Notes: a model not told the origin generated them from the letters alone. Shown: positions 38,987 through 63,470, counted from the first letter of the stretch. The stretch: 64,000 nt of DNA from an uncultured Pseudomonadales bacterium (GCA_964406075.1 CAYOQI010000001.1:5015-69014); one strand, 5' to 3'. Numbers and translations: made by a program.

Positions 38987-39469
38987 ATGAGCTATGAGTT
39001 TGAGGATCAAAATGGGCCAAAGGAAAAAAGTTTCCTGCGGCGTTTTACTACTTTCGGTATTATCGGCTTGCTTTTAACGGTGGGAGGTGCATGGTTCATC
39101 GAAACCGCAGTCTCCTATGGGATTCAACCATTGTTGGCGAATTTCATTCAGGCCATTATCTCTATTGTCTTAAATTTTGTGGGCAATGAGAGATTAACTT
39201 GGGGTGATCGGCAAGGGCTTACTCGGCGAGAAAAGGTAATCCGTTTTGCCAAGGTGAAAGCATTCACGTTATCGTTTAACCAAGTATTGTTTTTGATTGG
39301 GTTGTGGAGTTTCCCTGTTTTTGTGGTGGGGACACACTACATTCTCCCGGCAATTTTGCCGATCTATCGATTTTTTCCTGAAAATACGTTCGCCTATTGG
39401 TTTAGCACCAGTATTATTATGGTGTTCAACTACATTGCGGGTGACCGCTATGTGTACGCCAAAAAGTAG
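38987..39469 (+). CDS. GtrA-like small membrane protein (flippase component)
   Basis: 160 aa with four TM helices and GtrA family motifs (FGIIGLL..., LANFIQAIISIVLNFVGNERLTWGDR). The region is GC-rich. Confidence 0.8.
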   Translation: MSYEFEDQNGPKEKSFLRRFTTFGIIGLLLTVGGAWFIETAVSYGIQPLLANFIQAIISIVLNFVGNERLTWGDRQGLTRREKVIRFAKVKAFTLSFNQVLFLIGLWSFPVFVVGTHYILPAILPIYRFFPENTFAYWFSTSIIMVFNYIAGDRYVYAKK

Positions 39470-39485: not shown

Positions 39486-40697
39486 ATGCAAGAGTGGCAG
39501 CCTTTTGTGTCATTCGTAGTCCCGCTGAGAAATCAGAAGCGGGAGAACATTCAATCGTTGCTGGGAAGTTTAACTGCTCAAGACTACCTCAATTTTGAAA
39601 TCGTCTTAGTAGGGGGAAAAGATGACTCCACATGGGAGCACATTCCTGAAGAATTTCTCGAATGGGGAGGACTTTCTCTTCAGCAAATATGGTCTGATTA
39701 TCTTGCCCCAAAATCGCTCTCTGGAAACGCTCATGCTGTACGTGCAAAATACGGCAATCGTTTAATCATAGTTGAAGTTGAGTTAGTGAAAGTTCGCCGG
39801 CGTGGAAAGATTGTCGATTGGATTGGTCGGGATACAAACGTGAAACGTAACGTTGGGTGCCGGTTAGCACGCGGCGATGTACTCTCCCTCACAGATGGGA
39901 AAAACACACATGAACGTGACTATATTCAAAATGCTTTGTCAGAAATGGTGGAGCATAACGTAGAAGCTCTCGCGGGGGAAATGTATGCACTTGAAGAAGA
40001 GCATCATGGACTACTAGAAAACATCCTGATTCTCTATCAAGAGAAAGGGTGGGTTCGACGCAATCCAACTTTTCGACAAGGCTATCGGTTAGATAGTAAG
40101 TCCATTCGAGGTGTGCGTACGCTTCCAATCACGGCCTCGTGGTGGATGACGCGCAATGCATACTCCGTTATGGGTGGGTTTGATGAGCGGATGACGATTT
40201 CCTATGAAGATTTCGCCTCCGCAATTCGTTATGTTCAAAATGGTGGAGCTTTTTGGGTCACACCAAATGTATTCGTCTATCACCGTCACCGTCGGACTTG
40301 GGCAGAAATGTCTAAAGAATGGAAGCGATCTGGTGGAGGTGCGGCGGACACGTTGCACTTCTATCGGGATTCTGCATTCGCCCAGAAGCGTTTTCGAGAT
40401 GTGGTTTCGGTTTTAGGTTCGGTTCTTTTTGCGCTGTTTGTGGGGCTTGTTCTGATCGTGGCCCAGCAATGGGAAATTATCGGAGCAGGAAGTTTCGTGG
40501 TCGGATTGATGGGGATCGGTGCCGGTTTGGCGAATGCCCGAAGTGCGGGGCGCTGGTTTGGTTTCTTCTTCCCCTTCCTCACGGTACTGTTGATTCTCAT
40601 CTTCAGTATAAGTTTCATGCGTCAATATCTCCTTCGAGATGGTGCTAAGCGACTACTTCAAACTGTGTGGTCACTAGTAATGAGGACAACGTCATGA
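39486..40697 (+). CDS. GT2 glycosyltransferase with C-terminal TM helices (GtrB/CsbB-like polyprenyl-phosphate glycosyltransferase)
   Basis: VSFVVPLRNQKRENIQSLLGSLTAQDY, FEIVLVGGKDDST, and two or three C-terminal TM helices. Confidence 0.75.
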   Translation: MQEWQPFVSFVVPLRNQKRENIQSLLGSLTAQDYLNFEIVLVGGKDDSTWEHIPEEFLEWGGLSLQQIWSDYLAPKSLSGNAHAVRAKYGNRLIIVEVELVKVRRRGKIVDWIGRDTNVKRNVGCRLARGDVLSLTDGKNTHERDYIQNALSEMVEHNVEALAGEMYALEEEHHGLLENILILYQEKGWVRRNPTFRQGYRLDSKSIRGVRTLPITASWWMTRNAYSVMGGFDERMTISYEDFASAIRYVQNGGAFWVTPNVFVYHRHRRTWAEMSKEWKRSGGGAADTLHFYRDSAFAQKRFRDVVSVLGSVLFALFVGLVLIVAQQWEIIGAGSFVVGLMGIGAGLANARSAGRWFGFFFPFLTVLLILIFSISFMRQYLLRDGAKRLLQTVWSLVMRTTS

Positions 40698-42130
40698 GTA
40701 ATAGGCGATTTGGTTTTTGTATCTTATCGGTGCTAGTGGTAACGTTGGTCATCCACTTAGCTTTTATTCCGCTAACACCAAGGGAATCGGACGAAAACGT
40801 GTACCTCAATATCACAACTGAAACGTTGTTTTTAGGGTATCCACATTTAAATCTCCATCAGTCAGGAGAACCAGAATGGTTTCCCTACCATCCGCCATTT
40901 CAGTTTTGGTTGTGGTCAATTTGGTCGAGGATTTTCGGACTGTCGATCTTATCACTCAGATGGTTTAGCAGCTTAGTTTCAGTTGCGATGGTTGGGATGA
41001 CGATGTGGTTTACCCATCTCGTCGCTCAACACAAAGGCGCTACTCTGATGGCTGGAGCGATGTTGTCGGTAGCAGGGTGGTTCAGTTATACAACTCTGCT
41101 CGTTAAAATCGATTCGACCTCTGCCCTCACTGGGATTGGAGGGCTGATCGCTCTCTTGATTGCAACTCGTAATAAAACTCGTCGGTGGTGGATTCTTGCA
41201 GGAGCTCTGTTGGGGCTAGCAACAGCGTGGAAACACGTGGGGGGCTATGTCATCATTTCGGCAGCACTGTATGGGCTATTCACCCGAAAGGCTGAAATTC
41301 AAAGTCGGCGATATGTGATTGCTTTCTTTGTTGCGATTGCCGTGGTATTTGCGTACTTCTTGTTCATGATGGTAGTCGTTCAAGATGTGTATATCGATGC
41401 CACAGCGATTCAAATCCGTAGATCGCTAGGATTACAGCAGGCACGAGGTTTAGACTTTGGTCTTGGTGAACTGCTCAACGCACTAACTCAGACGTATTGG
41501 GCGTTCGGTGGCTCAGTGCTGACATTAGTTCTCGCTGGATTGTTAGCTGTTTGGTATAGCTGGCAACACGTCCAAGGAAAAGACCAATGGTTGGCACCAC
41601 TAACAGTTGCTGTGATTGGTTCGGTTATCATGCTGACTGGCGTTCGTCTCAGGAATCCGCATTACCTCGTGTATGCGGAATGGTCAGCCCGAGCATTTCT
41701 TGCAGTTTTGTTTGTCCGACAAATTATCGACAAAAGGAGGTTTTGGAAACTAGCACGTGGCTTGTTGGTTGTGATCATCGTCTTGGATTTTGTAACGTTA
41801 GGAATTCGAGCATTGATCTTCTCAGAAAACGATGCGTTCGCACGACTGGAAGAATCCCTAGCTCAGCTTCCAGCGGAAGCAGTATTCCTGTCCGAAGAGT
41901 CTGTGTGCGCCATGGTAGAACAGCGATGCTACTCGTTCGATACAACGAGTATCGATGAGCTCGAAGCAGATCCTCCGTGGTATGTGGTTGTTCAAGACAC
42001 GCTTGTATTGGATCCACCACAAACTGTGGAAGTACAAGAGCTTATCGATAGTTCAGTTGAGTTGAAAGAAATGATGGAGACGTATTGGAAGGGGGTGTTC
42101 CGAGTATATCGGACCCCCTATCACCGTTAA
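40694..42130 (+). CDS. GT-C fold glycosyltransferase (GT39/ArnT/YfhO-like)
   Basis: Polytopic membrane protein with an N-terminal loop bearing DE (PRESDENVY) and a soluble C-terminal domain. The ATG at 40694 forms an ATGA overlap with the GT2 stop. Confidence 0.7.
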   Translation: MSNRRFGFCILSVLVVTLVIHLAFIPLTPRESDENVYLNITTETLFLGYPHLNLHQSGEPEWFPYHPPFQFWLWSIWSRIFGLSILSLRWFSSLVSVAMVGMTMWFTHLVAQHKGATLMAGAMLSVAGWFSYTTLLVKIDSTSALTGIGGLIALLIATRNKTRRWWILAGALLGLATAWKHVGGYVIISAALYGLFTRKAEIQSRRYVIAFFVAIAVVFAYFLFMMVVVQDVYIDATAIQIRRSLGLQQARGLDFGLGELLNALTQTYWAFGGSVLTLVLAGLLAVWYSWQHVQGKDQWLAPLTVAVIGSVIMLTGVRLRNPHYLVYAEWSARAFLAVLFVRQIIDKRRFWKLARGLLVVIIVLDFVTLGIRALIFSENDAFARLEESLAQLPAEAVFLSEESVCAMVEQRCYSFDTTSIDELEADPPWYVVVQDTLVLDPPQTVEVQELIDSSVELKEMMETYWKGVFRVYRTPYHR

Positions 42131-42160
42131 CTTACCATGTTTAGATACATGGATTTTTAA

Positions 42161-42189
42161 AGACCCGCTTGCATAAAGTGGGTCTTTTT
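42161..42189 (+). terminator. rho-independent terminator after the GT-C gene
   Basis: AGACCCGC ttgcataaa GTGGGTCT followed by TTTTT. Confidence 0.6.
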
Positions 42190-42219: not shown

Positions 42220-42260
42220 AAAAAATGAGCCACTTCCTCCCTTGCGGAAAGAAGCGGCTC
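42220..42260 (-). terminator. rho-independent terminator after the 101-aa membrane protein gene
   Basis: GAGCCGCTTC...GAAGTGGCTC stem on the minus strand, followed by ATTTTTT. Confidence 0.6.
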
Positions 42261-42266
42261 GAGAAA

Positions 42267-42572
42267 CTACGTTGTGATCGAAGTCGGGTTGTCATAGCGG
42301 TTTTTGCCTAAAAGTACTGCACCAGCAAATAGTGCAGAAGCAACCACCGCGACGGTAGCCAACAGATCTAAAGGTGAAAATGTGCGATTCGCTAGGGCGT
42401 TAAAAACACCCAGAACTGCTGCCATTTCACCTACAACGAAAAGGCTTACGCCTATAATTTTCGGCACTTTCTGGCGAAGCAGAATAGCAATTACAGCTCC
42501 GCCACCAAAAATTGCCGCTACTAAATAGTACAAATTCCATTCTGTCACGACAAATTCTCCTCTTAGCTTCAC
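42267..42572 (-). CDS. small three-TM membrane protein (101 aa)
   Basis: Three hydrophobic helices rich in Ala, Gly and Val. GC-rich like the adjacent island, with its own terminator. Confidence 0.6.
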   Translation of the reverse strand: MKLRGEFVVTEWNLYYLVAAIFGGGAVIAILLRQKVPKIIGVSLFVVGEMAAVLGVFNALANRTFSPLDLLATVAVVASALFAGAVLLGKNRYDNPTSITT

Positions 42573-42725: not shown

Positions 42726-45236
42726 CTATTTTCCTGAGGCAATCCAGTTGAACTCAATGTCAGTTTGAGTATCTTTATTTAGTTGAATGGTAAAACCTTT
42801 TGTAGTTTGTTTAGTAATGACGTACTGAATGTTTTGATCAAAAAATGCCTTGCGCGCTTCTTTACTCTCATCATCTCCATTATCATTTAGCATCACACTG
42901 GCTGTAACCACAGGCGTTTCTTCAAGCTCTTTTTCAAATGTGACTTCGATATGATCTTTGGTTTTTTCAACTTTTACTTTGCCGGAAGTTTGCGTATTTG
43001 ATGAGGATTCTGCTTTCGATTCAGAGGAAGCGACGACACTTGGTTCTCCACCGATTCTTTTTTCCAATTCATTGATTCTCTGATTCAGTGCTTTGATTCC
43101 TACCAACGCTATACCAGCAGGATCTATCGTAGAAATAGAAGTATCATTTTCACCGACATTAAACGCTGCTTTGAAATCTTGGGCGACCGGTCCGATATGT
43201 TTGACCTCTTCCCCATCCTGTTTGTAATTCCATTGTTGGACAGGTAAATTCACAATTTTTTGCAAAACTTCTAGTGAATCAATATCCGTAAAATTTTCTT
43301 TTTGATTGCGGTCGGAAGAGTTCGTCCAATTGGCACCGTCGCTATACGCACCTCCGGAGAGTGTAACTAAGTGATCAACCGTCGCAGTCCCAATTCCTAG
43401 AAACCCACCTGAAGTTAAAGTCATAGCAGTTCCGCTTCCAAAAGAAGCATTATTCACATTAAATTTAATCCCTTTACTCGTCCCACCTTGAATTACTGCA
43501 TTTGAGCCATCGTAACCCACCATGGTACGATTGCCGGCCATATTGGTATATGAAGAGACATTCGTTCCGTCACCGAGTCGCAGTCCTTCCGCATTATAAT
43601 TAACATGTAGTTTTGTGCCTGGATCGACGGTTCCAATACCTACGCTTCCCGCAGTATCAATAGTCATTGCAGTACCAGCACCGAAGGAGGATGTGTTGAC
43701 ATTTAATTTTAATTTTTTATCCGTCCCTGATTGAAGCACTGCAGAAGAGCCATCATATCCGACCATAGTGCGATTACTTTGCATATTAATATACGACGAG
43801 GTATTTGTTCCGTCACCTGTTGTGATTCCTGCAGCATTGGCATTGGTATCAATCACCCCAGTACCGGCGTTCAGTACGATAGATTCGGTGGAAGTATTAT
43901 CCCCGACATTGAGAACGAGCCGACGTTGACCAGATGTATTTGTTTCTCGAAATAATCGAAGTGTGGCATCTTTAGTATTACTCATTGTCTTAGGATCAAA
44001 GGTCATAACTGTGTTGTCTGATCCATCCAATTCCGTTGACCATTTTCCAATTTGATAACTGCCCGTGTCACCACTATCTCTCATTTGATGAACAAATGTT
44101 GTACGGTCACCGTAATCATTGTGGATCCCAACCGTATCTGTTTGACTAAAAATGATATCGGCAAGATCACGATCATAGTCGATTGCAAATCGAGTGAGCA
44201 TGACAGCAGGAATTGATCCTAGTGCATCTGCAACGGTTTTGACTTCCCATCTTTTTTGTTCTGTTTCATCATTTATGTCGACACTGTGTATTCCAAACGC
44301 AGCGACATGTCGAGCGTTGTGATCAATACTACTGATCCAGGGGCGATCATATTGACTTGTTGCACGGAGTGAAATTAATCGAGTAATTGTGCCAGTTGTT
44401 GGTGTATTGGCAGTCAGAGAAATTCCTTGGTTTTCACCTATTGTCATAGCACCACTCGAGTTAAAAGAAGCGAGTGAATTACCTGAACTATTTTGAATAT
44501 CGATTAATCGATTGGTTTGCCCACTTGCTCCTCTGACCACTAACGTTTTTTCGTCGGTATCACCCACAATACCTAGTTTTCCAATTGAACTTGTAGAGCC
44601 AATACTCACATTGGCAGATGTATCGCCGGCGGAAACAACTCCACTGCTGTTATTCCATCCATCAGAACTGCTGGAAGTTGCGGTATTGGTAATTTTAATT
44701 TTTCTATTATCCTTATCGGTTGATAAAGAAATTCCATCTCCGGATTCAAACGTTAAGGCATCATTGTTTGAAGTAGCAGAAATAGTATCTTGATCATGCA
44801 CTTTAAACTCTTTAAAAATATTTTGAGCAGAACCTTTATCAGTGTTCACAATGGCACTTTTCAATATTTCAATTCCATTTCCTGCCACCAGCGACAACAC
44901 CCCAGTATTTGATATCCGATTTCCTTTAATTGAGATTCCAGTTCCGGCCATAAATGGAGCAATTTGGAGAGAATATTCAGGAGAAATCGCTGAAGAAGTT
45001 GCGATGTCCTGGCTAGTGTCTATAGCTGCGGCAACTGTTGGTAATGGTGAAATTAATTCTTTTTCGTCATTGGCTTTTTTTTCTGCAGCCTGCTGACATG
45101 GTTTATTACGAATAACCCAAGAGATCACTGGCAAGTTCCAAACACAGAAGCCAGATGATTCTTCAGCAGCTACGGCCGTTTGAGGGATCGACAGAAAAAC
45201 TATGAGTGATAGTAAGAATATCCGAAAAAATTTCAT
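42726..45236 (-). CDS. secreted fibre/adhesin-like protein with a peptidase S74 intramolecular chaperone domain (tail-fibre type)
   Basis: Signal peptide (...PQTAVA|AEE) and G/S/T/N-rich beta-repeats including an 81-aa tandem duplication. The C-terminal region reads SDRNQKENFTDIDSLEVLQKIVNLPVQQWNYKQDGEEVKHIGPVAQDF...ALNQRINELEKRI, which matches the S74 auto-processing domain. About 110 further residues follow it. Confidence 0.8.
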   Translation of the reverse strand: MKFFRIFLLSLIVFLSIPQTAVAAEESSGFCVWNLPVISWVIRNKPCQQAAEKKANDEKELISPLPTVAAAIDTSQDIATSSAISPEYSLQIAPFMAGTGISIKGNRISNTGVLSLVAGNGIEILKSAIVNTDKGSAQNIFKEFKVHDQDTISATSNNDALTFESGDGISLSTDKDNRKIKITNTATSSSSDGWNNSSGVVSAGDTSANVSIGSTSSIGKLGIVGDTDEKTLVVRGASGQTNRLIDIQNSSGNSLASFNSSGAMTIGENQGISLTANTPTTGTITRLISLRATSQYDRPWISSIDHNARHVAAFGIHSVDINDETEQKRWEVKTVADALGSIPAVMLTRFAIDYDRDLADIIFSQTDTVGIHNDYGDRTTFVHQMRDSGDTGSYQIGKWSTELDGSDNTVMTFDPKTMSNTKDATLRLFRETNTSGQRRLVLNVGDNTSTESIVLNAGTGVIDTNANAAGITTGDGTNTSSYINMQSNRTMVGYDGSSAVLQSGTDKKLKLNVNTSSFGAGTAMTIDTAGSVGIGTVDPGTKLHVNYNAEGLRLGDGTNVSSYTNMAGNRTMVGYDGSNAVIQGGTSKGIKFNVNNASFGSGTAMTLTSGGFLGIGTATVDHLVTLSGGAYSDGANWTNSSDRNQKENFTDIDSLEVLQKIVNLPVQQWNYKQDGEEVKHIGPVAQDFKAAFNVGENDTSISTIDPAGIALVGIKALNQRINELEKRIGGEPSVVASSESKAESSSNTQTSGKVKVEKTKDHIEVTFEKELEETPVVTASVMLNDNGDDESKEARKAFFDQNIQYVITKQTTKGFTIQLNKDTQTDIEFNWIASGK

Positions 45237-45311
45237 TGAAAGGTGATGTGATCGATCTTTTATTTCATCAACACTGTAGCTGGTTTTGAGAAGAATTTCT
45301 AGGAAGAAAAA

Positions 45312-45620
45312 TCAATTTCTTCGCATATCTCGAGTAAGATAGGCATGGAAGATGTAAGAAAAAATAACAGTTTCAATATAAGGTATTTCAAATCTTTCGT
45401 TTTCATGCACATCAAAAAGCTCGACCTGGTTATTTAATTGAACCATACCATCAGCGTATTCTTCACTGCCAGGTTTTGATTGTAGTACAAGTTCAAAATT
45501 GCCGTCATTCAGACAAGAAAGATTACGAAGAAGTATTTGAATAAGCAGATTTTTCTCTAAGGTTTTCAACCTAAATTCATTAACGGTTTTTTTTAACGCC
45601 CGTTCATGTATATGAGCCAT
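45312..45620 (-). CDS. hypothetical protein (102 aa)
   Basis: Intact ORF 9 nt downstream of the 281-aa gene and 75 nt upstream of the fibre gene. Confidence 0.5.
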   Translation of the reverse strand: MAHIHERALKKTVNEFRLKTLEKNLLIQILLRNLSCLNDGNFELVLQSKPGSEEYADGMVQLNNQVELFDVHENERFEIPYIETVIFSYIFHAYLTRDMRRN

Positions 45621-45629
45621 AATCTTCGT

Positions 45630-46475
45630 TTACTGAGCAATCACGATATACGCTTCCGCGAGCGGAACATCCGCAGTTGAAGTGTTGCCTGATGTGGTAG
45701 TTTCGGCTAATTGCCAATCGCTTCCATCCCAAGCGTAGATGGTTCCACTTCCTTGTTCTAACGTTTCGATCGAAACCGTTGCAGTTTTAGCAGAAGTTGA
45801 ACCGGCGTATTGGAAGGTATAGAGATCAGACATGGCTGTGCCAGGTAACTCGGCTGGATAGCCAGGAGAGTTGTAAATAATGGCGTATTTTAATGAAGAC
45901 AAGCCTGTTCCTTCAATTAAAAACTTTCCGTCTTGGGACTTGAGATCAGATGTTTTACTAGAGCTTTTGGCATTAACTCGATCATAGTATGACCAGTCTT
46001 GTTTGAGCCAATACTCATTTGGATTGGCAAATTTCAGTGTTAACGTCCCACCTTTGACATCTTCTTCATAACTAGTTTTTCCACCTGCACTGCGTGAGTA
46101 TAGTGCAAATTGTTTAGTGGCTGGAAGACCTTGCTCGAGATCAAAAGAATTCTCATTTCCACCGAGAGATGTTTCATATTGATACTCGGCTAAAAATTCA
46201 AGTTCTGTCGCCTCTTTATTGATTTTCGTAATCGTCACATCGATCTCACGATTGAGAGTTGGTGTCATGAAAACGTATGGTCGTTCACTGACCGGAATTT
46301 CATTGACTGGTTTAGAGACTTTTTTCTTTTTGACTGGACTTTGAGAAGCTTCTGGATTATCTCCAGCTGATTTTTGACGTGTAGCAAAAATGACAGCTGG
46401 AATGGCAATCACAGCTATGATGACAACGGCGATGATGATCTTTGTGGGGGTCGGTTTGGGCATGTTCTTTTTCAT
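45630..46475 (-). CDS. membrane-anchored extracytoplasmic protein (281 aa)
   Basis: N-terminal TM anchor (IIIAVVIIAVIAIPAVIF), a Lys-rich linker and a beta-rich ectodomain. No family recognised. Confidence 0.6.
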   Translation of the reverse strand: MKKNMPKPTPTKIIIAVVIIAVIAIPAVIFATRQKSAGDNPEASQSPVKKKKVSKPVNEIPVSERPYVFMTPTLNREIDVTITKINKEATELEFLAEYQYETSLGGNENSFDLEQGLPATKQFALYSRSAGGKTSYEEDVKGGTLTLKFANPNEYWLKQDWSYYDRVNAKSSSKTSDLKSQDGKFLIEGTGLSSLKYAIIYNSPGYPAELPGTAMSDLYTFQYAGSTSAKTATVSIETLEQGSGTIYAWDGSDWQLAETTTSGNTSTADVPLAEAYIVIAQ

Positions 46476-46519
46476 TCCGTCATTATCCGAGAGATTGGTG
46501 CTTTTGGCAACCCTAGCGC

Positions 46520-46545
46520 TTTGTCATCCTGTTTATTCAGGATGA
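46520..46545. repeat. minimal TGTCATCC palindrome
   Basis: TGTCATCCTG tttatt CAGGATGACA is a perfect 10-bp inverted repeat with the same terminal sequence as the elements at 47337 and 51010. Confidence 0.6.
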
Positions 46546-46566
46546 CAGGGTAATTCTCAAAAATGT

Positions 46567-46595
46567 ATTGAATCAGAATCCTATAAGAGTTATAA
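46567..46595 (+). promoter_or_regulatory. near-consensus sigma70 promoter
   Basis: TTGAAT (46567-72), a 17-nt spacer, then TATAAT (46590-95), about 80 nt upstream of the 85-aa ORF. Confidence 0.5.
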
Positions 46596-46674
46596 TATCC
46601 GCTTCCGTAAAGCCTTAACAGTGCGTTGATGGCCAAGCGGAATTTCGCTAAGAAGTAATGCAAAGGATTAAGAG

Positions 46675-46932
46675 ATGCATAAGTTGAAAGATGGGCAAAA
46701 TCACCGAGCATTTAATCTTGGAGGAGACTATCGTTCGTTTGAAGTCCACCAAGATGACCGCATGACAGAGATGGGAAACGTTAGTCGCGTGTTCGTAATT
46801 AAAGAGGGTCCCAACAAAAGGAAAACCCTACTTATATCCGAACGCGAGATGGAGAAGTTTGAGGAGGTGCTCGAAGAAGAGCCACCTCTAACTTCAACTC
46901 AACAGTCCCCGCCCTCCCCGATATTTCTATAA
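46675..46932 (+). CDS. hypothetical protein (85 aa)
   Basis: Intact ORF downstream of the consensus promoter, with an acidic and Pro-rich tail. No confident family assignment. Confidence 0.5.
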   Translation: MHKLKDGQNHRAFNLGGDYRSFEVHQDDRMTEMGNVSRVFVIKEGPNKRKTLLISEREMEKFEEVLEEEPPLTSTQQSPPSPIFL

Positions 46933-47032
46933 AAAGAAATAGCGGGAAAAATCTTGAACCGTCATGCACAGTACTTGTGTGTGGCGGTTTTTCTAAGTTA
47001 ACAAGTTTAGAATGGAATGAACTCACTCTTTA

Positions 47033-47326
47033 GTGGGTTTTTTGTTTTTTAAAAAAGATATGTCTGAACAATTTCAATTAATTGTAAAAGAAGATGAAGA
47101 GATGCTAAAGAATGCAGAGTATGTGTTGACCGAGGATATTTTTTATCCGCATTTTGCTGGAGATGTCTTGCGAGAAGGTACGATTCTTGTTCACAGTGGA
47201 AATTATAGAGATCGTCGTTTGTATAAAACAAAGATTAAAACACTGAAGGGCGAAGTAGACTTCACTGTATCAGTAGAAAGAAACGGAAGTCAAGATAAGC
47301 TCATTCATCAGCGATCTAATCAATAA
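47033..47326 (+). CDS. hypothetical protein (97 aa; possibly starts at M10, position 47060)
   Basis: Intact ORF with no family recognised. Confidence 0.4.
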   Translation: MGFLFFKKDMSEQFQLIVKEDEEMLKNAEYVLTEDIFYPHFAGDVLREGTILVHSGNYRDRRLYKTKIKTLKGEVDFTVSVERNGSQDKLIHQRSNQ

Positions 47327-47336
47327 GCACTACCGC

Positions 47337-47531
47337 TGTCATCCTGAGCGATCAGGTACTCCTGACGGTCGAAGGATCCCTGTCATCGGATAATCAATGG
47401 AACAATCACATAAGATGTTGAGCAAGCAATGCTTTTGAGGTTTTCAATTCATCAAGTCTGTCAGACTTTTAGATTTTTCAACTAAAAGGGATTCCTCGAA
47501 TGTCTGGATTACCAGACTGCTCGGAATGACA
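47337..47531. mobile_element. MITE-like element with imperfect terminal inverted repeats of about 44 bp
   Basis: Left end: TGTCATCCTGAGCGATCAGGTACTCCTGACGGTCGAAGGATCCC. The reverse complement of the right end is TGTCATTCCGAGCAGTCTGGTAATCCAGACATTCGAGGAATCCC. There is no coding capacity between the ends. Confidence 0.55.
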
Positions 47532-47555
47532 AAAAGAGAAGATAAAATTAAGAGA

Positions 47556-51142: not shown

Positions 51143-53266
51143 TTAGAACTCAACTTCAATGGTTTTGTCTTTATCCAAAATTACTTCTTCTTCGTGACCA
51201 TTTATATCGATTAAGTAATTGGCAGGATCAGTTCCGGCTTGTTTGCGAAGTTGCAAACGATATGTCGTTGTATCAGTATATGGAACGGTGTATTCAAGCT
51301 GAACTGTGCTCTGACTGAGTGGCGCTAAGTTGAACTCACCTTCGATGATAGTAAAGCCATTTTCTGTGCTTTCTTTTCGACTGCCCTCTTTGATACCGGT
51401 GACATTGGTAACGGTGGCCCCTTCAGGGACATAGACTCTCATCCAATCTCTGAGTACGGCGTTCAAACAGAGTAAACCTGCTTCAAGATTACAGTTATCA
51501 CCTTTTCGATTGTTTTTATATGTCAAAGTCAACGTATTTTTAATCTGACCATTTTCTGGAGCTGAGACGACGAGCTTTGCACTTTGCTCGACAAAGAGAT
51601 TTGATTTCGCTCCACCTAAGTTGGCATCTACGACCGCGATGTAATCATGACCTTCTTTGACAGGATTCAAACGTCCTGCGGCATTGATTTTCTCAGCAGC
51701 GGCTTGGTGTTCTTCATTGAACATGTAGAACTGAACACTGCGTGCTTCGATTTTCTTCCATCCAATATCAAATAATTGGGGCCAGAGTTCGTTTGGTGCA
51801 GCATAGGCTTTTTGTAAAATTGCTTGCATCATCGGAGCGATAATTCCTTTTCGATCTTCTCGAATGTACGGAGTAGGTCGGTCAACGATTTCAGACAAGA
51901 CATAAATGATTTGAGGACAATCACAGCGAGGATCGTTATCTGCAGTAAATGTGCCGTATCCTGGAACCTCAACGGGACCAAGAACTTTAACTAAATCTGA
52001 AAGAACGGTGGTATCAACAGCAATGATGCCATCAATATTGGCTGGTTCACCTGGAACTTCCTGGAAGTGTTCGTAAAAGGTATCCATTGAATTTTTGAAA
52101 TCTGGATCAATATTCATGTCTCGCAGATTGAACCGAGTTTCACTGGTTAGGTATTTGCCCAAAATTGGAGGAATTGGGATATTTTTGCGAAACTTTTTAT
52201 CTAACTCATAAATGTCATCACTTTTCTCTGGAGTGACAACACCTTTTTCGACAAACATGACGGCGTAAGCAGTCATGAATCCACCAGTGGGGCGAAGCTC
52301 ATTATCGTTTTGGAAAATAACTAAGTATTTTTTTCGAGTATCAGATCCAGCGACTTCAGGAAGAATTTCAATAACTGGACGGAATTCTGTCACAGCTGAG
52401 ACTGCGCCACTGCTAAACGCCTTGGCTTGGTCAATCATCGTACGGACCTCATATTCCTGATATTTTTCTGGGTAACGACTGGAATCAATTTGAGCGAGTT
52501 CAGTTTCAACGGTTTTCAGCTCAGTCGTAATGTCATCAATGACAGGAGTAACTTTATCCAGTGTTTCTAAGAGCAATTTAATTCTATTTTCAGCTGTGCC
52601 ACCTTCAAAACTGCCTTCTCCGGAAAAACCAAGCACATCTGCATACGGCACGATAGCATCAACACTTTTCAAACCTGCTCTCATTCCGGCTTCACCAGCT
52701 GCAAAAGCATGGAGACCATCTTGATAATAGGTTTTAGCGACAGGAACATTTTGATAAAAAGCCAAGCGTTCATACTCAGTCTTCATTGTTTCAACTCGCT
52801 TTTGGAGATCGATCATTGTGGCTTCAGCTCCAGGAAGGTTTTGATTTTTTAGCTGATCTTTCAGACCCTGCCCGACAACCATGGCTTCCATCGCCTGTGT
52901 TTTCAAATTCGTCGCAATTTTATACGTATGTAAGCCAACGGCACCAACAGTTCCAACTACACTCAAAAAGAGTATGAGTACGACACTGGAGATCACTACA
53001 AATCTTCGAGAAAAATTGAATCGACGTTTCTTTTTGGTTAGAATTGGCGCTGGATCAGACTCAAGCTCTTCATTCATAGCTTCTTCTGGTTCATCGTCAG
53101 TGTGCTGAAAGAGACGCACCAAGGGTTTAGAAGTCTCGTCATCGAGAGGTGTTTCTGGTTCCACTTGGACTGTGGGAGTCAATGTCGGTTCGACTTCTTT
53201 TTGTTTGTTATCTGGTGTGATAACAGTATGTGTGTTTTTCGAGGTTGTTTGGGCATTTTGAGACAT
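51143..53266 (-). CDS. DUF4012 domain membrane-anchored protein
   Basis: 707 aa with an N-terminal TM anchor and the signature FQNDNELRPTGGFMTAYAV. Confidence 0.8.
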   Translation of the reverse strand: MSQNAQTTSKNTHTVITPDNKQKEVEPTLTPTVQVEPETPLDDETSKPLVRLFQHTDDEPEEAMNEELESDPAPILTKKKRRFNFSRRFVVISSVVLILFLSVVGTVGAVGLHTYKIATNLKTQAMEAMVVGQGLKDQLKNQNLPGAEATMIDLQKRVETMKTEYERLAFYQNVPVAKTYYQDGLHAFAAGEAGMRAGLKSVDAIVPYADVLGFSGEGSFEGGTAENRIKLLLETLDKVTPVIDDITTELKTVETELAQIDSSRYPEKYQEYEVRTMIDQAKAFSSGAVSAVTEFRPVIEILPEVAGSDTRKKYLVIFQNDNELRPTGGFMTAYAVMFVEKGVVTPEKSDDIYELDKKFRKNIPIPPILGKYLTSETRFNLRDMNIDPDFKNSMDTFYEHFQEVPGEPANIDGIIAVDTTVLSDLVKVLGPVEVPGYGTFTADNDPRCDCPQIIYVLSEIVDRPTPYIREDRKGIIAPMMQAILQKAYAAPNELWPQLFDIGWKKIEARSVQFYMFNEEHQAAAEKINAAGRLNPVKEGHDYIAVVDANLGGAKSNLFVEQSAKLVVSAPENGQIKNTLTLTYKNNRKGDNCNLEAGLLCLNAVLRDWMRVYVPEGATVTNVTGIKEGSRKESTENGFTIIEGEFNLAPLSQSTVQLEYTVPYTDTTTYRLQLRKQAGTDPANYLIDINGHEEEVILDKDKTIEVEF

Positions 53267-56649: not shown

Positions 56650-57294
56650 CTATTTTGAAAGAAGAAGGGGTTTTCTTTTGGCGAATAAAAAAAGTAGAAA
56701 AGACTGAATCCAGGTTAAGAGAAGAACTGTGATGGCTGATGCAATCCAAAATTGTTCTGGGAAGAGTTGAATAATTAAACTTTCTTCTGGAAAGCCCCAG
56801 TTTCCTTGTGGAAAAAAAACCTGGTGAAAAAGAGTAAAAAAAGCATTCCAGAAAAAAATGACTGCAACTAGGCACACCAAAATTAAAATGTTTACTACCC
56901 AAAAAGTTGATGTAAATATATGTCTGAGTTGACTGAATTTCTTTTGTTGAATAAATATTCCGAGTAAAAAGAGAAAAATAATGAGTATGAAATTATGAAA
57001 AGAAAAAAATGTTTGACTGAGTTTTTTAACATCATTCATGTGAGATTGTTCTGACAAGGTGATGGTGATTAGATATCCATTAGGGTCAACCAGTTGAAAA
57101 ACATCTTTTTTATCGAGCAAACTGTGAACGGAATTTTTTCTGAGGAGACTTTGTGTTTCTGTTGATAGTTGAGCAGACGGCCCAATTCCATCCGTTACAT
57201 TCATATAAGTTGGCGTAAAAACCATTCTCACAGAATTCCCAACTAATATAAAAAGAAACAGAAACAATACAAACCAATGAAAGAATTTGCCCAT
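56650..57294 (-). CDS. TIGR01906/DUF1461 (Lit-like) integral membrane protein
   Basis: FFTLFHQVFFPQGNWGFPEESLIIQLFPEQFW matches the DUF1461 signature, and four TM helices are present. Confidence 0.65.
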   Translation of the reverse strand: MGKFFHWFVLFLFLFILVGNSVRMVFTPTYMNVTDGIGPSAQLSTETQSLLRKNSVHSLLDKKDVFQLVDPNGYLITITLSEQSHMNDVKKLSQTFFSFHNFILIIFLFLLGIFIQQKKFSQLRHIFTSTFWVVNILILVCLVAVIFFWNAFFTLFHQVFFPQGNWGFPEESLIIQLFPEQFWIASAITVLLLTWIQSFLLFLFAKRKPLLLSK

Positions 57295-62993: not shown

Positions 62994-63470
62994 TTATTTT
63001 AAGTTTTGATTTATTTCTGCGACTCCACCACCATTCCATTTTGTTATGCTATTTCCCTCTGTATCAACTTGAACAAGCGTGTGTTGATATGTCACAGCAT
63101 ACTTGGTTTTAAGTTCTGTTTCAGAATCGTAATCAACCTTAAAAATCGTAACATTATTTGGAAGTTGTGAAATATTTGATATTAATTCTTTATCAAGTGC
63201 TTGGCAGGTTGGGCACCAGCTTGCATGGAAAAATAAAACTGCTTTGCCATTCAAGGCGGCATCTTTAACGAGTGAGGCATCATATGTCATGTAGTTTGCT
63301 GGAACTACTCTGGTAATTTCATTTGTGGAAACGGGTGTGGCATCGGTGATTGGTTCACCGGCTATCACTTGATCACCTTCAGAAACTGAAGGAATGTTGA
63401 TTTGTTTTTGGCAAGCTACGAGGATGATACTTGAAACAAAGAGGATGGAGATTGAAATAAGTTTTTTCAT
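62994..63470 (-). CDS. thioredoxin-fold lipoprotein
   Basis: Lipobox IILVAC and the WCPTC active site within FFHASWCPTCQALDKEL. Confidence 0.8.
   Translation of the reverse strand: MKKLISISILFVSSIILVACQKQINIPSVSEGDQVIAGEPITDATPVSTNEITRVVPANYMTYDASLVKDAALNGKAVLFFHASWCPTCQALDKELISNISQLPNNVTIFKVDYDSETELKTKYAVTYQHTLVQVDTEGNSITKWNGGGVAEINQNLK

Follow-up and report, generated by a model that had tools for sequence, protein, structure and literature searches.

A cell-encoded fibre protein that joins an internal S74 chaperone domain to an H-type-lectin fold, probably from a bacterium of the Microgenomates group

The closest described counterparts of the protein reported here are the MAT fibres of Bdellovibrio, which are Sec-exported, cell-encoded and S74-processed adhesive trimers for prey recognition (PMC10769870). 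MAT-like proteins have also been listed in other predators and in symbionts; these include no member from the candidate phyla radiation (CPR, or Patescibacteria) and no H-type lectin (PMC10769870). H-type lectins are homotrimers, and in the minor pilin CofB such a trimer is carried by a bacterial filament at its distal end, where it has been repurposed for peptide binding (PMC6048534). The attachment means described for CPR bacteria are type IV pili and a few adhesins in Saccharibacteria (PMC10633639, PMC12206443). Here we describe a fibre gene in a 64,000-nucleotide stretch of DNA deposited under the name of an uncultured Pseudomonadales bacterium (GCA_964406075.1, CAYOQI010000001.1:5015-69014; hereafter the window, with positions counted from its first letter). 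The encoded protein carries a Peptidase_S74 domain and, behind it, a domain with the H-type-lectin fold. To our knowledge, the ways in which CPR bacteria find and hold their hosts are largely unknown, and the hosts of the Microgenomates group are mostly unidentified. The reading that we favour, and regard as probable, is that the gene is fixed in the chromosome of a CPR (Microgenomates-group) bacterium and that its product, a Sec-exported surface fibre, derives from phage tail fibres and has been domesticated as a trimeric, receptor-binding protein.

The fibre resembles MAT proteins such as Bd3182 in being cell-encoded, in having a signal peptide and a long beta-rich fibre of the phage-tail-fibre type, and in carrying an S74 domain with the SDxxxK motif; its trimeric state is presumed. 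Both families are split into members with and without S74, the MAT members without it ending in lectin-like tips, and in both cases the producer is one that relies, here probably, on contact with other bacteria. In contrast to the MAT C-terminus, which is either the S74 domain or an adhesive tip, an internal S74 domain is followed here by a lectin in one chain. The lineage (CPR, probably monoderm) and the central domain are also different, and the linkage to GtrA, GT2 and GT-C genes presented below has not been described for MATs. Two segments, VGIGTVDPGTKL (residues 535-546) and LGIGTATVDHLV (residues 616-627), resemble the MAT capping-loop motif V-G-G/N-pi-x-x-P-x-x-x-L, with an extra residue before the proline or no proline. 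MATs possess a beta-rich, conserved domain about 130 residues long directly after the signal peptide (PMC10769870); the N-terminal 94 residues of the present fibre are poorly conserved even within its own family (19% identity). The kind of protein is thus known from MAT, and what is new is the fusion of S74 and lectin in one chain, the CPR lineage and the attached glycosylation trio.

The phage fibres tipped with a chaperone (K1F endosialidase, T5 pb1, and S16 gp37) share with the fibre the S74 profile, the catalytic motif and a beta-rich shaft of a PHROG tail-fibre family. The endosialidase has its functional domain upstream of the stalk and chaperone, a position that by analogy would be taken here by the central domain. 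Unlike these phage proteins, the present fibre has an export signal, is not accompanied by virion genes, and does not end in its chaperone. MYRF provides the parallel for an internal S74-type domain, the cleavage of which splits an N-terminal trimer from a C-terminal part with further domains. However, MYRF is a eukaryotic membrane-anchored transcription factor, the C-terminal part of which consists of a transmembrane segment and a luminal domain, whereas here an extracellular fibre makes up the N-terminal part and a soluble lectin fold the C-terminal one. The lectin domain matches the fold of Helix pomatia agglutinin (HPA), SLL-2, the discoidins and CofB, of which CofB differs in binding a peptide instead of a sugar.

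The N-terminus of the fibre (MKFFRIFLLSLIVFLSIPQTAVA|AEE) reads, directly in the sequence, as a classical Sec signal peptide: its n-region is basic, its hydrophobic core is 12 residues long, and there is an A-x-A cleavage site. A hydropathy scan found residues 1-19 to be the sole hydrophobic segment. The computed mass of the precursor is 89.0 kDa, and that of the protein without its signal peptide is 86.3 kDa. Gly, Ser, Thr and Asn together account for 46% of residues 111-270 and 51% of residues 471-640, and Ser and Thr alone for 21-23% of the fibre. In PHROGs, residues 397-739 fall in a tail-fibre family and residues 640-738 in a virion structural family. The initial annotation, made by eye, had described an open reading frame (ORF) of 836 residues with a cleavable signal peptide, a shaft rich in Gly, Ser, Thr and Asn, and an SDRNQK motif starting at the Ser codon 43316..43314. 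All of this was confirmed: the ORF starts with ATG, and Ser641 is encoded at the named codon with Lys646 five residues on. The assignment to S74 and the lectin-like nature of the C-terminal extension, proposed in the same way, also held when profiles and structure predictions were applied, as described next.

The Pfam family Peptidase_S74 (PF13884) matched residues 641-692 with 46 bits against a cutoff of 22 (E=6.4e-12), and the catalytic dyad is intact in the order S641-D-R-N-Q-K646, i.e. S-D-x-x-x-K at the start of the domain. A PDB search with a single S74 sequence (phmmer) gave no match, and a family profile was needed. This profile matched the solved chaperone domains 8jov (phage tail fibre), 6f45 (long tail fibre distal subunit; S16 fibre), 8hqz (T5 L-shaped fibre), 7dc3 (MYRF), and 3gud (GA-1 neck appendage) with E-values of 3e-6 to 8e-5 (5.8e-5 for 7dc3). 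The family motif SSDRnlK was aligned with SDERLK and SDRRIK of the solved domains, as was a GxxAQ(D/E) motif. The S74 helix stops near residue 726, leaving 110 further residues that include the folded lectin domain, so that S74 is not at the extreme C-terminus as in the usual phage members. This extension is real, as the initial annotation had noted, but since MYRF is likewise an exception, the internal position does not exclude S74 membership and is by itself less exceptional than had been implied.

The Ser/Lys dyad is invariant in eight of the ten family members. The other two, P0008 and P0010 (locus L009), have lost SDxxxK and kept the lectin; their S74 catalytic region has been swapped for an unrelated segment of about 100 residues (…ELRVRDEDGNVTTLSPHNF…), with the shaft, the lectin and the gtr-like neighbours retained. 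These two proteins constitute a natural subfamily without S74, comparable to the NS74 MAT proteins. Bd3182 is cleaved at S782, and its mature tip ends at A781 (PMC10769870). Because that cut lies N-terminal to the catalytic Ser, the scissile bond in the present fibre is predicted to be Ser640|Ser641, and the putative products are a fibre of 64.6 kDa (residues 24-640) and a chaperone-lectin fragment of 21.8 kDa (computed masses).

The lectin assignment was examined by both sequence and structure. Pfam H_lectin (PF09458) scored 22 bits against a cutoff of 24 on the whole protein (residues 764-833) and 25.4 bits (E=1.6e-5) on residues 750-836 alone, and it matched all 12 of the family domains (best E=7.4e-9). 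The four best PDB sequence matches of a lectin-family profile were H-type lectins (SLL-2, HPA, and Helix aspersa agglutinin, HAA), at weak E-values of 0.4-1.3. The AlphaFold2 model of the domain (pLDDT 91.2, pTM 0.80) gave as its top Foldseek matches in the PDB 3wmp, 4q56, 2ccv, 2ce6, 2cgy, and 2vm9 (probability 1.0, template-modelling scores 0.59-0.62), the best being SLL-2, HAA, HPA, and discoidin II. The next matches were the C-terminal domains of phage tailspikes (phi297 gp61, AP22 gp54, LKA1 gp49, and Pam1) and R-pyocin fibres. In a viral structure library, the best matches were tail-fibre proteins, several of them annotated as H-type lectins. According to the model, the C-terminal extension is a six-stranded beta-sandwich of the H-type-lectin fold, a type also used by phage receptor-binding proteins. 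The sequence identity to H-type lectins is low (14-21%). The HMMER alignment shows that the loop after the FxxxLNK strand is three residues shorter than in HPA, where it corresponds to what we take to be the sugar-contacting loop, and the residues aligned with N61 and R63 of HPA, presumably contact residues, vary within the family. Because of the shorter loop, binding of GalNAc is not to be assumed.

The lectin domain is common outside the fibre family. With the lectin profile, an exhaustive HMMER search returned 2,946 cluster representatives at E≤1e-3 (1,183 at E≤1e-10), many of them very large (up to 4,395 residues) with the domain near the C-terminus. The tail that usually stands behind the lectin has a median length of 77 residues, is rich in Pro, Ser, Thr and Ala, and is never hydrophobic. 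Using a family-derived HMM, an upstream S74 domain was found in only eight of the 145 best matches outside the family, three of which were confirmed by Pfam. A cassette of lectin and Pro/Ser/Thr tail is therefore widespread, and an S74 domain before it is uncommon. Most fibre homologues also add a Pro/Ser/Thr-rich tail, whereas the window protein and P0002 end two residues past the lectin. In many unrelated proteins among P0029-P0173, some of them very large, a motif of the type K-(N/D)-(A/P)-K-x-(F/Y)-x-S stands right behind the lectin, followed by the Pro/Ser/Thr tail without a hydrophobic anchor, apparently an as yet undescribed cassette at the C-terminus of surface proteins. In P0068 and P0050, a Peptidase_G2 (GA-1-type) chaperone domain is present in place of S74; it scored 29.5 bits against a cutoff of 25 in P0068 and was below the threshold in P0050, which also has LVIVD repeats. 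Because Peptidase_G2 replaces S74 in some proteins, the order of chaperone and lectin seems to have arisen with two chaperone types. Precomputed Pfam annotations already place the pair of S74 and H_lectin on four database proteins. Our literature search yielded no description of an H-type lectin behind an S74 domain, nor any report of S74 fibres from CPR bacteria. When 50,697 phage genomes were searched by tblastn with the C-terminal 210 residues, only the S74 part of the query (residues 14-106) was matched.

The window is ordinary chromosome, in which the fibre is cell-encoded and not part of a prophage. The fibre gene is located between a dcw cluster (mraZ, mraW, ftsI, mur ligases, murB, murA, mraY, ftsW, ftsA, and ftsZ) at about 20-38.6 kb and a polysaccharide cluster at 51-62 kb (DUF4012, Bac_transf, NTP_transferase, and several GT1/GT2 genes), and its other neighbours encode a class II aminoacyl-tRNA synthetase (GlyRS-like) and RecO. 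Pfam and PHROGs scans of the neighbouring ORFs over about 15.5-63.5 kb returned cellular families or nothing, without any capsid, terminase, portal, tail, baseplate, lysis or integrase gene. The examined neighbourhoods of the homologues likewise lack phage capsid, tail, baseplate and integrase-type genes. Ten ORFs of unknown function in the window have no PHROG match, and the S74, lectin and central domains occur in no other ORF of the window.

The organism itself was placed by its FtsZ. The FtsZ encoded in the window has hundreds of homologues at about 70% identity, and the best named ones reach 69-70%. All of those with organism-level names belong to the Microgenomates group ('Microgenomates group bacterium', 'Candidatus Pacebacteria' twice, and 'Candidatus Woesebacteria'). 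From this similarity we infer that the organism is a CPR bacterium of the Microgenomates group, tiny and probably host-dependent. The initial annotation had pointed to a cell-encoded fibre with no other phage genes nearby, which would be relevant if the organism were an episymbiont; the neighbouring genes agree with the former, and the placement of the organism in the CPR by FtsZ similarity makes the episymbiont context apply. In the polysaccharide cluster, a Lit-family lipoprotein intramolecular transacylase is encoded at 56650-57294 (-) and a DUF4012 protein at 51143-53266 (-). The Lit family has been characterised in Firmicutes, and both genes would fit an envelope of the monoderm type.

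Nine full-length relatives of the fibre were recovered from 5.8 billion searched proteins; in the family alignment, they show 40-53% identity over the whole protein. The family is rare: it is present in one GTDB species representative and at one JGI metagenome locus, which was already among the known ones. Each of the ten members carries a signal peptide or a membrane anchor at its N-terminus, and the fibre ORFs are intact in eight different chromosomal neighbourhoods. The mean pairwise identity is highest in the central domain (residues 268-470, 59%), followed by the shafts (49-54%), S74 (38%), the lectin (31%), and the N-terminal 94 residues. The only GTDB representative with the family (L006, CAZRAG010000001.1) is also labelled 'uncultured Pseudomonadales bacterium'; this label is probably wrong, because the locus has the CPR-type module and a G+C content of 45%.

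The central domain leads back to phages. A profile search of PDB sequences gave no match to it at E≤1, and Pfam gave none except a sub-threshold match to SH3_10 (residues 319-348, 14 bits against a cutoff of 22.8). Outside the fibre family, only three clear relatives were found, which are stand-alone proteins of 260-350 residues with 31-36% identity from the structural modules of phages. One of them, on a contig with an integrase, is encoded two genes downstream of the gene for a major head protein (phrog_212, E=6e-52), and another directly after a P22-type portal gene. The G+C content of the three phage contigs is 61.6-63.1%, compared with 38-48% for the CPR loci, and because of this gap the phages evidently infect hosts of high G+C content instead of these CPR bacteria. 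Every module has relatives in phages. The fibre family was not found in the viral contigs of IMG/VR by strict family patterns, and a broader alignment gave two short partial matches; the lectin alignment was too divergent for the derivation of such patterns.

The fibre gene is linked to a glycosylation module. In seven of the eight loci (the window, L001, L004/L005, L006, L009, L010, and L011), a small hydrophobic ORF of 61-110 residues comes after the fibre gene on its strand, and convergent genes for a GT-C glycosyltransferase (PMT_2), a GT2 glycosyltransferase and a GtrA-family protein stand next; at the eighth locus (L003), a PMT_2 gene lies two genes upstream of the fibre instead. The genes outside this five-gene block differ at every locus, and the glycosyltransferase orthologues share 28-39% identity across the loci. 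The small membrane ORFs are conserved in position, and comparison did not establish sequence homology between them. P0017 and P0011, which have S74 and the lectin and lack the central domain, have no GT-C, GT2 or GtrA neighbours, so that the linkage is specific to the family with the central domain. In the window, the GtrA, GT2 and GT-C genes are adjacent on one strand, two of them overlapping, and by gene content the trio fits a three-component (Gtr-type) extracytoplasmic glycosylation system, with the GtrA-family protein as a candidate flippase component and the GT2 enzyme as a candidate polyprenyl-phosphate sugar synthase. The gtr-like block has a G+C content of 46.6% against a window mean of 39.3%, with the fibre gene near ambient at 40.8%, and positions 40001-42000 (GT2/GT-C) form the G+C maximum of the window (0.479 in a 2-kb profile). 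The raised G+C content suggests that the trio may have been acquired horizontally.

The module has the layout seen in phage P22, in which the tailspike gene 9 is followed by the convergent gtrC-gtrB-gtrA in the same order and orientation. The three functional classes are the same, and the GT-C protein of 487 residues is matched in length by GtrC (486 residues). Detectable similarity is confined to the GtrA proteins (E=5e-4). Orthology of the GT-C and GT2 genes to gtrC and gtrB was considered and rejected, as there is no detectable similarity, and the parallel is therefore one of organisation and not of orthology. Furthermore, attP and int come after gtrA in P22 and neither attP nor an integrase is found here, and an additional small membrane ORF stands between the fibre and GT-C genes. 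The coordinates of all features are collected in Table 1.

Table 1. Features of the fibre locus (positions in the 64,000-nucleotide window)
Feature	Position	Strand	Basis or remark
GtrA-family small membrane protein	38987..39469	+	Pfam (PF04138, 45.7 bits)
GT2 glycosyltransferase, three C-terminal transmembrane segments	39486..40697	+	Pfam (PF00535, 31.2 bits)
GT-C glycosyltransferase, at least six transmembrane segments	40667..42130	+	PMT_2 (PF13231, 51 bits); DE motif after transmembrane segment 1, kept in orthologues
Terminator-like hairpin, ends convergent glycosylation operon	42159..42187	+	Strong hairpin
Terminator-like hairpin, 15 bp stem, T-run, ends fibre/small-ORF unit	42227..42260	-	Strong hairpin
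Small membrane protein, three predicted transmembrane segments	42267..42572	-	Likelier start GTG 42548 (93 aa)
Fibre gene, 836 aa	42726..45236	-	ORF call, ATG start
H-type-lectin-fold domain, aa 750-836	42729..42989	-	Profile and predicted structure
Ser/Glu/Lys-rich linker, aa 727-749	42990..43058	-	Family alignment
Peptidase_S74 intramolecular chaperone domain, aa 641-726	43059..43316	-	Ser641 (43314..43316), Lys646
Distal shaft, aa 471-640; two repeats of about 81 aa, each closing with a (V/L)GIGT... motif	43317..43826	-	Within PHROG tail-fibre family phrog_1980
Family-defining central domain, aa 268-470	43827..44435	-	Motifs YDRPWIS, LTRFAIDYD, GIHNxYG, LRxFRETNTSG
N-proximal shaft, aa 95-267, G/S/T/N-rich	44436..44954	-	Family mean pairwise identity 49%
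Conserved N-terminal motif FC.W.LP.ISW...C, two Cys (C31, C47)	45096..45152	-	In 5/10 family members
Signal peptide, aa 1-23	45168..45236	-	Predicted signal peptidase I site AVA|AE; read from sequence

Each of the two convergent units closes with its own strong hairpin terminator. The start of the small membrane ORF is likelier to be GTG 42548 than the codon at 42572, because AGGAG sits 8 nucleotides before it. No Shine-Dalgarno-like sequence precedes the fibre ATG (window 45237-45270, …GATCACATCACCTTTCA ATG). At the position of the linker, most homologues have a longer (about 45 residues) conserved beta-rich segment. The two Cys of the N-terminal motif may possibly form a disulphide loop or an anchoring element. 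Disulphide-handling genes (VKOR, DsbD/CcdA-like, and DsbA-like thioredoxin) lie a few kb from the fibre gene at L001 and L009, and a thioredoxin-fold gene is located at window 62994-63470, 18 kb from the fibre gene; their presence near fibres with two conserved N-terminal Cys may be a coincidence. The GT2 profile matched the window protein in two pieces (residues 9-53 and about 121-270), pointing to an insertion of about 65 residues in the catalytic domain, and the homologues matched Glyco_transf_21 and Glyco_tranf_2_3 instead. GtrB-type enzymes have two C-terminal transmembrane segments, compared with the three found here. Directly upstream of the fibre gene are ORFs at 45630-46475 (-) (281 residues, with an N-terminal transmembrane or signal segment) and 45312-45620 (-) (102 residues), neither of which matched a family in Pfam, PHROGs or NCBIfam. 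They were rejected as members of the module because they are not conserved beside the fibre homologues. NCBIfam likewise gave nothing useful for the fibre, the GT-C and GtrA proteins and the small ORF. Between the gene for the secreted 281-residue protein and that for the class II aminoacyl-tRNA synthetase, a gap of about 1.1 kb (window 46476-47555) contains no ORF of ≥100 residues and no Rfam match; it holds small plus-strand ORFs of 85 and 97 residues.

Under the reading that we favour, the precursor would be exported and would lose its signal peptide at Ala23. The three chains would be brought into register from the C-terminal end by the S74 domain and the trimer-forming lectin, and the beta-rich shaft would then zip up toward the N-terminus. 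Ser641 and Lys646 would cut the chain at Ser640|Ser641, and the chaperone-lectin fragment would leave the mature fibre or stay bound as a cap. The fibre may project from the cell, held, as we speculate, by its N-terminal region, in which five members have the two-Cys motif. Equally speculatively, the central domain may bind a surface glycan of another cell or be enzymatic, and the lectin tip may also bind in uncleaved variants or in those without S74. With the help of a lipid carrier, the GtrA/GT2/GT-C trio would bring a sugar through the membrane and attach it outside the cell. One conceivable target is the glycan of the producer itself, the modification of which would avoid self-binding, as gtr does in P22 lysogens. 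Seroconversion by phage gtr genes blocks the phage's own tailspike. Another conceivable target is the Ser/Thr-rich fibre, which would then be O-glycosylated.

Several points weigh against this account. Trimer formation, cleavage, anchoring, ligand and glycosylation target are all things that we infer, trimerisation and cleavage from what is known of the domain families. The central domain was poorly modelled by AlphaFold2 (pLDDT 51.7 and pTM 0.29 with a 14-sequence alignment); because it is unmodelled and has no PDB or Pfam match, its proposed binding role rests on the phage homologues and on conservation. The C-terminus that cleavage would expose (…GAYxxxGxxWTN-S) is conserved, unlike variable receptor-binding tips, and if cleavage occurs the role of the lectin becomes unclear, because the lectin leaves the fibre. 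No LPXTG motif, lipobox or C-terminal transmembrane segment that could serve as an anchor was found in the fibre. In comparison with P22, the GT-C protein is of the PMT_2 type and not similar to GtrC, and the GT2 protein is not similar to GtrB. The CPR affiliation, finally, is drawn from one marker protein, FtsZ.

In an alternative reading, the lectin itself would be the working distal tip and S74 a trimerisation module that is uncleaved or conditionally cleaved, the ligand being a glycan or, as in CofB, a peptide. We find this possibility doubtful and nevertheless take it seriously. P0008 and P0010 have the lectin and the same gene module without SDxxxK, the lectin cassette ends thousands of other proteins that mostly have no S74, and the lectin is the fastest-evolving folded part (31% against 59% in the central domain), as expected of a tip that determines specificity. 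Folds of this type cap phage tailspikes and pyocin fibres, CofB bears such a trimer at the pilus tip (PMC6048534), and the S74 cleavage of Bd3182 appears to be delayed to late predation in Bdellovibrio (PMC10769870 supplement). However, the strict conservation of the dyad and the surrounding motif in eight of the ten members is hard to explain without catalysis, and every characterised S74 protein with an intact dyad cleaves itself (PMC10769870); endoNF, T5 pb1, and MYRF are generally known cases. An envelope-building glycoprotein, i.e. an S-layer or wall fibre that is O-glycosylated by the GT-C protein and tethered to the producer's own wall glycan by the lectin and the Pro/Ser/Thr tail, seems unlikely to us. 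The GT-C protein does belong to the protein-O-mannosyltransferase-like PMT_2 family with its DE motif kept, the content of Ser and Thr is high (21-23%), the tails on most homologues are typical of O-glycosylated wall-spanning linkers, and the gene is located between the dcw and surface-polysaccharide clusters. On the other hand, the window protein and P0002 are without the tail, S74 cleavage would cut the fibre off from the proposed tether, S74-lectin proteins without the central domain have no GT-C linkage, and a core envelope component would be expected to be commoner than a family with one GTDB representative and one JGI locus.

The initial annotation had also allowed for the remnant of a tailocin or prophage. 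As a statement about ancestry this is supported, since every module has phage relatives; as a statement about the present state it is not, given the export signals and the intact genes in eight settings. We consider it very unlikely that the locus represents a temperate phage or tailocin in decay, reduced to a receptor-binding protein and seroconversion genes with no present cellular function. Such a remnant would account for the copy of the P22 tailspike-gtrCBA layout formed by the fibre and the convergent GT-C/GT2/GtrA genes, and for the elevated G+C content of the gtr-like block. It would not account for the export signal or membrane anchor in all ten members, which phage fibres do not have, or for ORFs that have stayed intact at 40-53% identity in eight different neighbourhoods. 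Moreover, the scans over about 15.5-63.5 kb turned up no gene for an integrase, capsid, terminase, tail or baseplate, and the family is absent from IMG/VR.

Returning to the domesticated surface fibre, a more far-reaching version can be formulated, which we present tentatively and find rather doubtful: a CPR bacterium recognises its host cell by a domesticated phage receptor-binding fibre that is combined with a gtr-like module for self-avoidance and a removable cap. If this is true, the central domain would trace back to podophage-like viruses of high-G+C bacteria, where its ancestor was a structural or receptor-binding protein, and the fibre would target the same kind of surface glycan on the host of the CPR bacterium. 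The co-inherited GtrA/GT2/GT-C proteins would alter the surface of the producer, so that the fibre does not bind to the cell itself or to its kin. The internal S74 domain and the lectin would constitute a removable, surface-tethering assembly cap, which would make trimer formation possible outside the cytoplasm.

The value of the locus lies in its CPR context, in the tightly conserved module of fibre and glycosylation genes with its P22-like layout, and in the clue to an origin of the conserved domain in phages of high-G+C bacteria. The protein would be a bacterial case of an internal S74 domain whose cleavage frees another folded domain, so far known from MYRF. It would also extend the MAT principle, namely the reuse of phage fibre parts by bacteria living on bacteria, to a second and very distant lineage. 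The fibre and its glycosylation module offer an experimental handle, in that the partner cell could be picked out of a community by probing with the recombinant fibre, its central domain or its lectin. The fibre is thus a good candidate for the means by which such CPR cells grip other cells.

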